This document shows, one piece after another, positions 7,596-9,731 of a DNA stretch of 64,000 bases (position 1 is its first letter; each line of letters opens with the position of its first letter). Under the pieces are notes generated by a model. That model was not told the origin of the DNA. It did no database searches and saw nothing but the letters and a program-made list of their open reading frames with translations. Origin of the DNA: an uncultured Bacilli bacterium (GTDB taxonomy: Bacteria > Bacillota_I > Bacilli_A > RF39 > UBA660); the NCBI GenBank assembly GCA_934086185.1, contig CAKOHW010000004.1, forward strand, positions 47,318 through 111,317, given 5' to 3'. A program made the position numbers and the translations under genes.

Positions 7596-9731
7596 ATGAA
7601 CAGAAAACAAAAGATTATAGTTAGTGTAGTAGGAATAACAATTGTACTTTTGGCACTTCTAGGATTGACATATGCATACTTTTTAACAAGGATACAAGGA
7701 AACACTAATGATAAGAGCATCAGTGTAACAACTGCAAATTTAGAGTTAACTTATGCAGATGGTAATGGTACTATAACAAGTAATAATATTATGCCAGGAA
7801 CTACATTAACTGACAAAGAATTTACAGTAACAAATAATGGTAATGCAACTGTAAATAATTATGCTGTATATTTAGAAGATTTAGTAAATGAATTAACAAG
7901 GCCTGATGATATGGTATATACACTAACTTGTACAAGTAGTAAAGAAAATGGATCATGTGTAGGTAAAAGTGAGACAGCTTTTCCAAAATTAGCAGGAATA
8001 ATTGTAACTAATTCAATTGATGTAGGAGAAACACAAACATATAAATTAACAGTAACATATAAAGAAATGGGAGTAGACCAAAGTGATGATATGGGTAAGA
8101 AAGTATCAGCACGAGTACAGATATATAATTTACAAGATATTGTAGATGTAACAGGAACAGTAACAAATGCAAGTGAAGGAGATTATGTAGAAATGCATAG
8201 CGATCCAAGAAAAAGTATGATAACGACTGATAATAAGTATTTAATAGCAGCAGTAGAACCAGGAACTCATACACTATATGTAAAAGATAAGGAAGGAACT
8301 GTAAAAGGAAGTAAAGAAATAACTATAAAAAAAGGTAATACAGCTAGTGTAAGTGGAACAAATATAACAGTAACAAACGATTCACAAACAGTTAATGTTA
8401 ATATAAAAGCAATTGCTTCAACATTAACAATAGATATTGGTGAAACAAAAGATTATATGCCATTTGAAGAGGGCACACTTGCATATAATATATTAAATAA
8501 TGCAAAACTAAATGCAAATGGTACGGAATTTGTAAAGAGTCCTATAACAAAACCTATAAAAGGTACAAGTGGTATAAAATATAATAAATCAAATGATCCA
8601 GTGACTTTTTCTGAAACATTTGATAATGTCTCTAACTATTATATAGCATATGCTACAGAATATGAAATTGACGAAGATAGTGGAAATTTTTCTTTAGGCA
8701 CTAAAACTTCTTCAGTGAAAATCGAAAAATTTTCTGGTAGTTTATCTTCAAAATTGAAAGGAAAATATATATATTTAAGTGAAAACGAAGAAATAGCAAA
8801 GAAAAATGTTTTTTCTAAGATTTATAAGGTTAGTACTGATGAAGATATTATTGATGACACAATTAAATGTGCTTCAATTTTAAAAGAACATAAAGTTATA
8901 GATGAAAGTGTTTTATCTATAACTGATGATGATTATGGGAATTCTTATTACTTTAGAGGATCAGTTAACGATAATTATGTAGAGTTTAACAATATGTGTT
9001 TTAGAGTTGTTAGAATAGCAGGAGATGGAAGTATAAAAATAATACTTGCAAAAGAAGATTTATGTTCAACAATATCTACTTCTGATACAAAAAGTGCATT
9101 AATAAATAATGGTGCAACTACAATTTATGGATATAATAGTGTTAATAATAAGTATGTGGCAAATTATAATAATACGATTAATGGACTTTATTTTACATTG
9201 CAAAAGTGGTTTAATTCGACTGGATTAGAAAGTAAAAAATCAAAATTAAAAAATGATACATGGTGTTTAGGAGGAGGAATAAATAAATATGATACAAGTG
9301 GTAAAATTTTAGATAATAGTGATAGTACTATTGAAGATTCAACTTATTATTATTTATTAGGTCTAAGAATTTTTGGACATTCTATGCCTAAACAAAGTTC
9401 TTTAAAGTGTTCACAAGAAGAAGAAAAAATAGATAGCTATTTTGGTACATTGACAGTCGATGAGTATGGTTTTGCTGGGGGTTCTGGAATAACTAATGAT
9501 ACATTTTATTTGGCTGATAATGCTAAAGGTTCATATATTTGGACTTTATCTAAAGTATCTCATATATCAAGTGGTGATATTCTAATTAATATTAATAAAA
9601 CTAGTTTATTATCAACCAAACTTCCTAATTATAAATGTTCAGTTATGCCAGTTATAACATTATTAAATAACACCAAAATCATATCTGGGGATGGAACTAT
9701 TTCGAATCCGTACAAGATTTTAGAAAGTTAA
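7596..9731 (+). CDS. Large secreted protein with an N-terminal TasA/camelysin-like (SipW-cognate-type) domain, paralog 1
   Basis: Signal peptide ending TYAYFLT (AYF motif). SISVTTANLELTYADGNG...NIMPGTTLTDKEFTVTNNGNA resembles the TasA/CalY fold. Long Thr/Asn-rich extension. Paralogous to 54890-56725. Confidence 0.6.
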   Translation: MNRKQKIIVSVVGITIVLLALLGLTYAYFLTRIQGNTNDKSISVTTANLELTYADGNGTITSNNIMPGTTLTDKEFTVTNNGNATVNNYAVYLEDLVNELTRPDDMVYTLTCTSSKENGSCVGKSETAFPKLAGIIVTNSIDVGETQTYKLTVTYKEMGVDQSDDMGKKVSARVQIYNLQDIVDVTGTVTNASEGDYVEMHSDPRKSMITTDNKYLIAAVEPGTHTLYVKDKEGTVKGSKEITIKKGNTASVSGTNITVTNDSQTVNVNIKAIASTLTIDIGETKDYMPFEEGTLAYNILNNAKLNANGTEFVKSPITKPIKGTSGIKYNKSNDPVTFSETFDNVSNYYIAYATEYEIDEDSGNFSLGTKTSSVKIEKFSGSLSSKLKGKYIYLSENEEIAKKNVFSKIYKVSTDEDIIDDTIKCASILKEHKVIDESVLSITDDDYGNSYYFRGSVNDNYVEFNNMCFRVVRIAGDGSIKIILAKEDLCSTISTSDTKSALINNGATTIYGYNSVNNKYVANYNNTINGLYFTLQKWFNSTGLESKKSKLKNDTWCLGGGINKYDTSGKILDNSDSTIEDSTYYYLLGLRIFGHSMPKQSSLKCSQEEEKIDSYFGTLTVDEYGFAGGSGITNDTFYLADNAKGSYIWTLSKVSHISSGDILININKTSLLSTKLPNYKCSVMPVITLLNNTKIISGDGTISNPYKILES

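Follow-up and report, generated by a model that had tools for sequence, protein, structure and literature searches.

Introduction

The TasA, CalY and TapA proteins of Bacillus are the closest described counterparts of the proteins reported here. Both groups feature a Sec signal peptide, predicted in our case, that ends in small-x-A ahead of an aromatic-F start (TYA/YF versus TWA/AF in TasA, the slash marking the cut), followed by a conserved strand and a beta-sandwich with a PG..TK.F.V.N.G block. TapA, like our proteins, has further domains behind the module. In TasA, the donor strand comprises residues 28-38, with F29 and I32 (PMC9674648). The archaeal bundling pili AbpA/AbpB and the cannulae (CanA) are also TasA-like donor-strand filaments, and in AbpB, adhesin-like beta domains have been proposed to lie distal to a donor strand (PMC9245690; PMC12518558). 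By analogy, our proteins would resemble these archaeal filaments in being distant TasA homologs detectable by profile methods only and in not requiring a dedicated signal peptidase. The archaeal systems differ in that they belong to another domain of life and have neither a lectin head nor a multigene family.

DUF6273 has been described as C-lectin-like in phage receptor-binding proteins (PMC10743442) and as the N-terminal domain of an IgA protease (PMC12402451). Systems of this kind are the N-terminal domain of the Thomasclavelia ramosa IgA protease, the phage 'tentaclin' receptor-binding proteins, TvpA of T. denticola and Mtd of a Bordetella phage. The vlp surface-protein family of M. hyorhinis is controlled by a poly-A promoter tract. 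The cell-surface protein encoded by cwpV of C. difficile is phase-variable through site-specific DNA inversion, and its OFF state is an intrinsic terminator in the 5' leader. Poly-G switches have been described upstream of the transcription start site in tpr of T. pallidum (PMC7864442) and for the pili of B. breve (PMC9187656).

Here, we describe two genes, A and B, in a 64,000-nt stretch of DNA from an uncultured Bacilli bacterium (the window; Table 1). The exported proteins that they encode belong to a very large, modular family found in AT-rich gut Bacilli that are uncultured. The family departs from TasA in several respects. Its sandwich is smaller (about 150 residues versus 233 mature residues in TasA), its C-terminal cargo runs to 400-530 residues and finishes with a lectin-like head, it comprises 15-18 paralogs per genome versus 1-3, it has no tapA-sipW-tasA operon, and its polymerisation is only predicted. 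We know of no precedent among TasA fibres for long C-terminal cargo on every subunit.

Table 1. Features of genes A and B and their upstream regions (window positions)
Feature	Position	Strand	Residues	Basis or remark
Promoter-like site TTGTAA-17 nt-TATAAT, common to gene B	7366..7394	+		Promoter scan, A/B upstream alignment
Small leader stem-loop GAGTA-GAAAG-TACTC	7403..7417	+		Just past the -10
Terminator-like leader hairpin with T run, holding the G tract	7447..7520	+		MFE -25.2 kcal/mol, z -5.95 versus shuffles
G9 homopolymer, candidate slipped-strand switch	7489..7497	+		98 nt before the gene A ATG
Gene A	7596..9731	+	711 aa	Domain order N-I-M-C; ORF, domain HMMs
Signal peptide or N-terminal hydrophobic helix	7596..7676	+	aa 1-27	MNRKQK, 18 hydrophobic residues, TYA
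N domain	7677..8141	+	aa 28-182	TasA/camelysin-like beta-sandwich
Family-invariant segment YFLTRIQGNTNDKSISVTTAN, candidate donor strand	7677..7739	+	aa 28-48	
I domain	8142..8453	+	aa 183-286	Ig or transthyretin-like (CarboxypepD_reg/fn3_3-like) insert, missing in B
M domain	8454..8900	+	aa 287-435	Without family assignment, optional within the family
C domain	8901..9728	+	aa 436-711	DUF6273-type C-type-lectin-like head
Gene B promoter-like site TTGTAA-17 nt-TAAACT	54829..54857	+		RBS directly after; no leader hairpin, no G tract
Gene B	54890..56725	+	611 aa	Domain order N-M-C; ORF, BLASTP versus A
Gene B, N domain			aa 1-197	
Gene B, M domain			aa 198-345	
Gene B, C domain			aa 346-611	

The gene pair and its family

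Translation placed both open reading frames exactly where the first-pass annotation had drawn them. The paralogy it proposed is borne out by BLASTP similarity far above chance: A and B are 56% identical over N-terminal residues 1-176 (E 3e-53) and 40% identical between A287-708 and B198-610 (E 2e-68), with about 110 residues (177-286) extra in A. The internal blocks that it had pointed out, TYKEM[GN]VDQS and DDYG.SYY.RG..(D/E)DNYV.F..MCFR.VRI.GDGS, are present in both proteins, as are the similar C-terminal ends (.G.GT.SNPY.I). At 711 and 611 residues, the term 'giant' was an overstatement, and 'Thr/Asn-rich' applies only moderately, with 10.7% and 13.1% threonine and 8.6% and 7.5% asparagine in A and B, respectively; serine amounts to about 10%.

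The N-domain profile matches 3220 clusters at 50% identity with E <= 1e-3, 438 of them with E <= 1e-30, and family hits number more than 1061 at 90% clustering. The domain stands at or within a few residues of the N-terminus in 150 of the 150 matches listed. The 78 genome loci all trace to bins of uncultured gut 'Bacilli' or 'Tenericutes'. Four bins hold at least 18, 16, 15 and 11 distinct family genes, often in tandem, and these counts are lower bounds. A domain HMM census yielded the architectures NMC (38), NC (24), NIC (10) and NIMC (7), besides N domains with other C-termini; M is carried by 53 open reading frames. Some members are mosaics. P0026 shares 90% identity with A across residues 1-288 and has diverged past that point, and P0015 joins an A-like N and I to a B-like M (83% identity to B). 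The diversification of a surface adhesin or fibre family, which had been suggested from conserved ends and a variable middle, is thus supported and extended by domain mosaics, by 15-18 copies per bin and by upstream G tracts.

The N-terminal module and its relation to TasA

The earlier assignment of A and B to TasA/camelysin-domain proteins holds in part. Against PF12389 (Peptidase_M73; gathering threshold 22.5 bits), A gave no match and B gave only E 0.52 and 10.6 bits. TIGR04088, the model of SipW-cognate signal peptides, compared with residues 1-60 of A and with residues 1-200 of A and B, returned nothing at E <= 10, a search in which HMMER filters may lose weak matches to short models. The NCBIfam matches of A and B were spurious KdpC-like signal-peptide ones only. 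However, the cut-off of PF12389 is passed by close relatives, namely L003:6082-7038 (36.9 bits), P0276 (27.2), P0233 (26.9), P0236 (23.5), P0205 (22.8) and P0282 (22.7), whose N domains fit the family profile at E <= 1e-58; the match of P0276 spans profile positions 3-174 of 196. Sub-threshold matches occur in 21 of 60 family members, and the N domain of gene B matches the N-domain HMM at E 1.4e-74. Since A and B fall below the cut-off while relatives with the same N domain pass it, these profile scores mark them as divergent relatives of Peptidase_M73 and not as members by the curated test.

Further support comes from direct comparison with TasA. Alignment of the N-domain profile to B. subtilis TasA by hhalign gave 82.8% probability and E 9.4e-6 over residues 1-88; the match is confined to the first ~85 residues, which counts against the TasA reading. 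Within it, the segment of residues 28-48 falls on the TasA donor strand (residues 28-38), and F29 and I32 of TasA align with the family-invariant F29 and I33. Y28, L30, T31, I33, G35, N36, N38, S41 and A47 are invariant among 60 aligned family members. The AF2 model of A (pLDDT 82, pTM 0.73) has low confidence at residues 23-48 in the monomer. Foldseek gave a probability of 0.98 to the TasA fibre, and with the full-length model its matches were largely noise from multi-domain beta proteins. The full family profile found no match among PDB sequences. Together, the profile evidence partly supports a placement of the N module as a divergent branch of the TasA/camelysin (Peptidase_M73) superfamily.

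The name Peptidase_M73 invites the view that the N domain works as a secreted metalloprotease of the camelysin type and that the lectin head targets it to a substrate, and DUF6273 also occurs as the N-terminal domain of an IgA protease (PMC12402451). This is extremely improbable. TasA-type members are structural and not catalytic (PMC5879678, PMC9674648), the sandwich is small (~150 residues), A and B match no metalloprotease family in Pfam or NCBIfam, and catalysis in the IgA protease lies in a separate M64 domain that is absent from A and B.

Signal peptide and anchoring

Cleavage of A after A27 (TYA/YF) is predicted. With its n-h-c layout, T at -3 and A at -1, the N-terminus suits signal peptidase I. 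In the hhalign alignment, the hydrophobic helix lies on the TasA signal peptide and the family motif TYAYF on the proven TasA cleavage site TWAAF, and mature TasA begins at A28 (verified against 8aur_A). As to the prepilin motif G/F(T/S)LIE (PF07963), neither A nor B has an N_methyl match.

Alternatively, the helix may stay uncleaved, so that the proteins would be monomeric, type II membrane-anchored surface lectins forming no fibre. The N-terminal ~50 residues would then be an anchor with a juxtamembrane stalk recognised by a common partner, instead of a donor strand. The hydrophobic core IIVSVVGITIVLL is near-invariant across paralogs, which is unusual for a cleaved signal peptide and would suit a retained anchor as well. 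AF2 draws a continuous helix at residues 3-31 of A, passing through the TYAYF site. Moreover, A (last residues ...SNPYKILES) and B (...SNPYTID) have neither an LPXTG motif nor a C-terminal hydrophobic segment, which would leave the uncleaved helix as the simplest tether. Against these points stand the signal peptidase I layout, the alignment with the TasA cleavage site, and the fact that characterised superfamily members polymerise by donor strands (PMC9674648, PMC9245690, PMC12518558). We regard the uncleaved helix as somewhat unlikely.

The first-pass annotation had stated that a SipW-type signal peptidase is not present in the window, and indeed no signal-peptidase-like open reading frame was found there. 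In Pfam scans of 40 window open reading frames, the only S24 match was LexA. Neither the window nor the 1.29 Mb surrounding 111 N-domain family open reading frames contains an open reading frame with S[GSN]SM or [GS]SM.P ... GDN, so that in this motif search no SipW-like gene lies near any family gene examined, a point that favours the uncleaved helix. Likewise, no TapA- or SipW-like partner was found near family genes in the window and related loci. The surroundings of P0276, P0233 and P0150 were uninformative, their contigs being short and showing no peptidase; some of these N-domain-only genes may be truncated. A dedicated SipW, which the AYF motif had been taken to imply, is not a necessary implication, as archaeal TasA homologs are thought to rely on a general signal peptidase (PMC9245690).

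Near-identity of the 5' ends

The DNA of A and B is 85.5% identical over the first 172 nt, including exact matches of 20 nt (7623-7642 = 54917-54936), 20 nt (acatatgcatactttttaac, 7668-7687 = 54962-54981) and 35 nt (atacaaggaaacactaatgataagagcatcagtgt, 7692-7726 = 54986-55020). The near-identity noted earlier is therefore real; its figure of about 60 almost identical nt becomes 59 nt with 2 mismatches. At the protein level, 46 of the first 48 residues are identical. This likeness is not peculiar to the pair, as the N-terminal ~50 residues are near-invariant in 60 family members.

Gene conversion had been offered as one cause, whereby concerted evolution between paralogs, and not selection on the protein, would keep the 5' ends alike. 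Within one bin, the first 144 nt are on average 82% identical versus 71% between bins, and the same-codon fraction is 0.74 versus 0.60. Some bins have N-termini of their own, such as MNRNQRIVVS throughout CANRPF, and the domain mosaics demonstrate recombination among family members. On the other side, identical residues of A and B share the same codon at 32 of 45 positions in codons 1-48 versus 138 of 241 elsewhere, an excess that is not significant (Fisher p = 0.10), and codon usage alone, at 23.6% GC, would give 25 of 45. The DNA directly 5' of the two start codons does not align. Furthermore, the same residues are invariant across distant bins, for which conversion within a genome cannot account, and likeness within bins may merely mean recent duplication. 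Gene conversion is thus not needed, because a region near-invariant family-wide and codon bias explain the 5' identity, and we consider it quite improbable.

C-terminal domains and the lectin-like head

In a fold test, the C domain of A and B proved C-type-lectin-like. Neither protein matches PF19789 (DUF6273; gathering threshold 23.5 bits). The threshold is passed by the relative L001:9344-10729 (24.2 bits), and P0021 carries a precomputed PF19789 annotation. The same C domain follows the N-terminus of a type IV pilin in L002:18224-19651 (PF07963, E 1.3e-7) and is paired with a dockerin in L005, and these contexts mark it as a displayed module. Most likely, the head would bind a ligand, such as a host or microbial glycan or protein.

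With the described DUF6273 systems, the family has in common that C-domain relatives pass PF19789 and that the context is gut-bacterial. The DUF6273 domains of phages and Treponema differ in being diversified by retroelements, whereas the A/B family varies by paralogs, mosaics and the G tract. A diversity-generating retroelement was rejected for want of a template repeat, as the last 500 nt of A and B match only themselves in the window (blastn, word size 7).

The leader hairpin and its G tract

Of 34 related loci, 27 have a promoter like that of gene A, placed 82-121 nt upstream of the G run. At the place of the small stem-loop, related loci have AGGTA-GAAA-TACCT or AGTAGT-AAG-ACTACT, a covariation read from the sequences. 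The architecture of the larger hairpin recurs with other outer-stem sequences in 5 other subtypes (z -3.2 to -7.5). RNAalifold on 31 G-tract elements aligned by MAFFT retained the inner C/U:G stem alone, without compensatory changes. The outer stem was lost because the outer arms of the various subtypes are misaligned by MAFFT, so its evidence rests on single-sequence folds. Rfam has no family for positions 7000-7650.

The G9 tract is the sole G or C run of at least 6 in the window. The related loci (1.29 Mb, 24% GC) contain 39 runs of 8-13 G and not a single run of 7 G, and every C run in them is shorter than 7. Of these 39 runs (>= 8), 36 fall, always on the coding strand, in the 200 nt that precede a family start; such stretches make up 1.5% of the sequence. 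Counted by gene, 36 of 102 family members have a G9-G13 run in the 400 nt before their start. On the G strand the homopolymer is pure; the pairing partner is interrupted (CTCTCCCGACCTC). Tract length is polymorphic. The orthologous tract is G9 in 7 and G8 in 1 of 8 samples (7 loci and the window) with near-identical flanks, and four paralogous leaders of one bin, again with near-identical flanks, have G10, G11, G11 and G12; these lengths come from assembly consensus sequences, which hide heterogeneity within a population.

From its setting, the tract is a candidate phase-variation element that probably switches expression on and off. It resembles the T. pallidum tpr, M. hyorhinis vlp and B. 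breve loci in that surface-protein genes forming a multigene family have, in their 5' regulatory DNA, a homopolymer whose length is polymorphic between copies and strains. Unlike in those contingency loci, the tract is enclosed by a conserved, terminator-like hairpin of the transcribed leader, with a conserved promoter further upstream, and it is not obviously in a -35/-10 spacer or coding region. A role as such a spacer was rejected: the tract abuts TATAAA in some subtypes and lies 10 nt from TATAAT in the window subtype, with no conserved -35 at a fixed distance. With cwpV, the family shares a cell-surface protein and a terminator in the 5' leader. The cwpV element inverts, whereas inversion of the hairpin was rejected here because all 39 tracts stand in G orientation.

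The hairpin may instead be a constitutive leader or insulator terminator, with a G run owed to the AT-rich genome and without phase variation. Hairpin and U run resemble an intrinsic terminator, and one G more or less alters only a 2-nt bulge in the predicted RNA, which counts against a switch. Tract length is equal at 7 of 8 orthologous sites, and homopolymer differences between assemblies may be sequencing or assembly error. Nevertheless, a stem does not require a pure G8-G13 run facing an interrupted C/U strand, tract lengths are bimodal with 7 being absent, and the ordinary terminators of the window (7028-7063 and 54617-54655) have no such G run. The tracts sit upstream of this surface-protein family in a single orientation, and poly-G upstream of surface-protein families is an established switch elsewhere (PMC7864442; PMC9187656). 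A purely constitutive leader is distinctly unlikely.

Proposed mechanism and biological meaning

We consider it somewhat probable that A, B and their relatives are exported, modular surface proteins that combine a TasA-like N module, interchangeable domains and a lectin head, with variation arising in three ways. In the proposed mechanism, a Sec-type signal peptide would be cut between A27 and Y28, freeing the conserved N-terminal strand as a donor strand, as in TasA. This strand would plug into the sandwich of another family member, and a shared fibre showing varied lectin heads might take up different paralogs or have them attached. Indirect support for such an exchange comes from the invariance of residues 28-48 and their low pLDDT in the monomer model. 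The need for donor strand and acceptor groove to remain compatible across paralogs would explain why the 5' ends are near-identical and the bodies diverged. Variation stems from the many paralogs per genome and from recombination swapping domains between paralogs; in a third of the genes (A, not B), it would also come from probable on/off switching by a hypermutable G8-G13 tract in the 5' leader hairpin. The fuller proposal, TasA-type donor-strand fibres with shuffled lectin heads switched by a new kind of G-tract-hairpin contingency element, is unlikely on balance to hold in its entirety.

The hosts are uncultured AT-rich Bacilli, once binned as 'Tenericutes', that occur commonly in the guts of humans and animals, with Hadza metagenomes among the sources. 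A single unannotated family provides 3220 clusters (50% identity) and 15-18 or more genes per small genome. Its size, the fibre-type module, the lectin-like heads and the contingency marks make it a strong candidate for the main colonisation and immune-evasion apparatus of these bacteria. The G-tract hairpin offers a concrete phase-variation hypothesis that is checkable in existing sequencing reads. If true, the proposal would widen TasA-type assembly beyond single-domain matrix fibres to adhesins that bear cargo, and it would mean that a major uncultured lineage of the human gut microbiota has an adhesive fibre system that is both combinatorial and phase-variable.

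Two modular paralogs

Genes A and B, the only members of the family inside the window, are paralogs over their entire length. By BLASTP, residues 1-176 share 56% identity (E 3e-53) and A287-708 aligns with B198-610 at 40% identity (E 2e-68), leaving about 110 residues (177-286) that are extra in A. Hidden Markov models derived from the family alignment divide the gene A protein into four domains in the order N-I-M-C, with I at residues 183-286, whereas the gene B protein reads N-M-C. The descriptive part of the first-pass annotation is confirmed: both open reading frames lie on the plus strand at the positions it assigned, and the protein blocks it quoted occur in both products, as does a common C-terminal.G.GT.SNPY.I. 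The proteins, at just 611-711 residues, are not the giants it described, its Thr/Asn-rich sequence amounts to a moderate enrichment in Thr, Ser and Asn, and its interpretation is supported in part.

Coordinates of the genes, leader elements and domains
Feature	Position	Strand	Description
Gene A	7596-9731	+	711 aa
Gene B	54890-56725	+	611 aa
Promoter-like site, gene A	7366-7394		TTGTAA-17 nt-TATAAT
Small stem-loop, gene A leader	7403-7417
Compound leader hairpin with G tract, terminator-like	7447-7520		conserved in related loci
G9 homopolymer	7489-7497	+	98 nt 5' of A start codon
N domain	aa 1-182 of A		alignment-derived HMM
M domain	aa 287-435 of A		alignment-derived HMM
C domain	aa 436-711 of A		alignment-derived HMM

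The N domain and TasA

By the curated test, A and B are not members of Peptidase_M73: PF12389 gave no match to A and E 0.52 to B in the Pfam search, and NCBIfam models, among them the TIGR04088 type proposed for a check of the N-terminal region, returned nothing relevant for either protein, isolated N-terminus included. Nevertheless, sub-threshold PF12389 matches occur in 21 of 60 family members. The curated cut-off is exceeded by L003:6082-7038, from a related locus (36.9 bits), and by 5 of 10 short N-domain-only relatives, one of which covers profile positions 3-174 of 196; the N domains of these above-cut-off relatives fit the family profile with E values no higher than 1e-58. Profile comparison with Bacillus subtilis TasA (query 100% identical to PDB 8aur_A and 5of1, residues 28-261) aligned residues 1-88 at 82.8% probability, pairing the signal peptides, TYAYF with TWAAF, and the PG..TK.F.V.N.G block, and was reproduced with a 94-sequence profile. 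On this evidence, we conclude that the N domain in all likelihood belongs to the TasA/camelysin superfamily as a divergent branch, so that the proposed relationship holds through relatives while A and B themselves fall below the cut-off.

The donor strand of TasA comprises residues 28-38 and buries F29 and I32 in the adjacent subunit (PMC9674648); within the family, conservation peaks in the segment that aligns to it, Y28 F29 L30 T31 R32 I33 Q34 G35 N36 T37 N38. Cleavage at A27|Y28 would expose this segment, and the N domain may then polymerise by donor-strand exchange. The main rival to such polymerisation is that the N-terminal helix is an uncleaved membrane anchor and that no fibre is formed. 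Stand-alone N-domain proteins of 179-215 aa (L088:216-770, P0150, P0169, P0233, P0276), encoded on short contigs, could be plain fibre subunits, or else truncated genes.

The signal-peptide motif had been taken to imply a dedicated SipW-type peptidase encoded outside the window. Neither a motif search nor Pfam scans of 40 ORFs revealed an S26-like ORF in the window, the sole S24 match being LexA, and a motif search of 1.29 Mb surrounding family genes was equally negative. Archaeal TasA homologs probably rely on the general peptidase (PMC9245690), so that a dedicated SipW, though possible, need not be assumed.

Near-identical 5' ends

Across their first 172 nt, A and B share 85.5% DNA identity, including exact matches of 20 nt (7623-7642 = 54917-54936), 20 nt (7668-7687 = 54962-54981) and 35 nt (7692-7726 = 54986-55020); the last two are the strings originally quoted, with 4 nt between them that include 2 mismatches. 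Gene conversion had been suggested as the cause. However, the N-terminal 50 or so residues are nearly invariant family-wide, with M1, S10, G13, I14, L21, G23, T25, Y26, Y28, L30, T31, I33, G35, N36, N38, S41, A47 and L49 among the invariant positions of a 60-member alignment, and A and B agree at 46 of their first 48 residues. Identical residues use the same codon in 32/45 cases at the 5' end vs 138/241 in the remaining gene (Fisher p = 0.10), codon usage alone predicting 25/45. Since strong protein constraint and extreme codon bias account for the near-identical DNA, gene conversion is unnecessary. A weaker signal suggestive of within-genome homogenisation is present in the first 144 nt of family genes, where identity is 82% within bins vs 71% between bins and the same-codon fraction 0.74 vs 0.60, a picture that recent duplication would equally produce.

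The lectin-like head

One C-domain relative scores above the PF19789 (DUF6273) cut-off. The N-terminal domain of the Thomasclavelia ramosa IgA protease is annotated DUF6273 (PMC12402451), a domain for which a C-lectin-like character has been reported in phage receptor-binding proteins (PMC10743442). The C domain also follows a type IV pilin N-terminus (L002:18224-19651) and other TasA-like leaders and occurs with a dockerin, and from this variety of partners it behaves as a putative displayed binding module. In L002:18224-19651 the junction is with a classic prepilin N-terminus, KRGFTLIEII (PF07963), and a second pilin-like ORF (L070:6176-6862) lies near a family gene, so that these organisms may present one type of head on two different filaments. 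No DGR-type template repeat was found within the window.

Two other unannotated C-terminal regions, neither with Pfam matches, are joined to the N domain (L035:3225-5288, L063:9989-12127, L064:9989-12079; L047:8778-10436, L049:7329-9005, L022:2346-4028). One carries a repeated ...YE.YG..PSP.YPSEIKSVGDL... motif, which we take to be reminiscent of phage tail-fibre proteins, and the other is a region of about 370 residues.

A large family of mosaics

The family is large and almost wholly without annotation. It has more than 1061 matches at 90% clustering, and the N-domain profile finds 3220 clusters (50% identity) at E <= 1e-3, 1930 at <= 1e-10 and 438 at <= 1e-30; the domain starts at, or a few residues from, the protein N-terminus in all 150 clusters listed. 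All 78 loci in GTDB species representatives lie in bins of uncultured 'Bacilli' or 'Tenericutes' from the gut of Hadza people, goat and rabbit, and gene A orthologs are present in human gut assemblies. Among the 111 N-domain ORFs of the fetched loci, tandem arrangement is common (five in L061), architectures include NMC (38), NC (24), NIC (10) and NIMC (7), and the N domain is also joined to unrelated C-termini. Four bins hold at least 18, 16, 15 and 11 distinct family genes. Relatives are mosaics: P0026 matches A at 90% identity through residues 1-288 and is divergent further on, P0017 is 84% identical over 1-314 and 37% thereafter, and P0015 combines A-like N and I domains with an M domain 83% identical to that of B.

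A G tract within a conserved leader

The G9 tract upstream of gene A is the sole G/C run of six or more in the window, whose GC content is 23.6%. A survey of the window together with 1.29 Mb from related loci (24% GC) counted 71 G runs of length 5, six of length 6 and 39 of lengths 8-13; length 7 was absent, as were C runs of seven or more. Of the 39 long runs, 36 fell in the 200 nt preceding a family gene start, a zone making up 1.5% of the surveyed sequence, and the remaining three were at contig or locus ends. Tracts precede 36 of the 102 genes with a complete 5' end, always with G on the coding strand, at 43-57 nt (15 genes), 129-159 nt (20 genes) or 98 nt (gene A) from the ATG. Tandem arrays often have a tract before the first gene only (L061, L069), while L045 has one before both. 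The orthologous tract is G9 in seven samples and G8 in an eighth, with flanks otherwise almost identical, and four near-identical paralogous leaders of one bin carry G10, G11, G11 and G12. Such features characterise simple-sequence contingency loci, among them the Treponema pallidum tpr genes (PMC7864442, PMC3656149) and Bifidobacterium breve pili (PMC9187656).

Only a few bases away, the T run closing the hairpin (7513-7520) is a second length-polymorphic homopolymer, being T8 in the window, L079, L080, L083 and L085 and T7 in L081, L082 and L084. Contigs L028, L040, L042 and L078 start or end exactly at a G tract, which suggests that assemblers break there owing to the repeated leader and 5' gene end or to heterogeneous tract length.

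The hairpin comprises an A run, an AU-rich outer stem of 10-16 bp whose sequence varies by subtype with pairing maintained, a conserved TATAAA-like block left unpaired, an inner stem setting an interrupted C/U-rich strand against the pure G run, and a T run. Fold z-scores against shuffles ranged from -3.2 to -7.5 in six subtypes (-5.95 for 7447-7516 of the window), and no Rfam family matched the element. Of 34 tract-bearing sites, 27 show a conserved promoter (TTTACA/TTGAAA/TTGATA, a 17-nt spacer and a -10, often TG-extended) 82-121 nt 5' of the tract, followed by a small covarying stem-loop, which places the hairpin in the transcribed leader; no -35/-10 geometry common to all hairpin subtypes was found. 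Gene B has the same promoter block leading directly into the ribosome-binding site, without hairpin or tract. The block common to both genes (7333-7395 vs 54793-54857; CTACTAAATTAAG..TAAAACAAAATT..ATTGTAAATG) reads TTGTAA-17 nt-TATAAT or TAAACT, and in gene A about 190 nt of additional leader separate it from the ribosome-binding site. Adding or removing one G alters only a bulge in the predicted RNA fold.

Genomic surroundings

The DNA of the window is ordinary chromosome, from a Bacillota organism that has peptidoglycan genes, and encodes EzrA, alanine racemase, LexA, ScpA/B, DXS and tRNA synthetases. Gene B is flanked by two zinc-ribbon membrane proteins, the second with a PrsW-family intramembrane protease domain (neighbourhood coordinates 52722-54616 and 57155-58630). 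A 491-aa protein after gene B, which combines Listeria-Bacteroides (Flg_new) repeats with a hydrophobic tail at the C-terminus, is probably another surface protein. Right behind gene B, a 74-aa ORF (56829-57053) with a helix-turn-helix-looking segment (INKSALARQYNCCWRTIDRRL) and no Pfam match could be a transposase or recombinase remnant. Mid-window genes encode a tyrosine recombinase of the phage integrase family (41448-42614) and a GGDEF diguanylate cyclase (44310-45479). Two genes upstream of gene A, immediately behind an ABC-2 transporter operon (3015-5564), a 142-aa ORF (5635-6063) has an N-terminal hydrophobic helix and matches no family.

Concluding remarks

The family is best read as exported, modular and mosaic, combining a TasA-like N-terminal assembly or anchoring module with a C-type-lectin-like head that would bind a ligand. 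About a third of its genes, on the same reading, carry a candidate phase-variation tract, through which changes in G number may switch expression.
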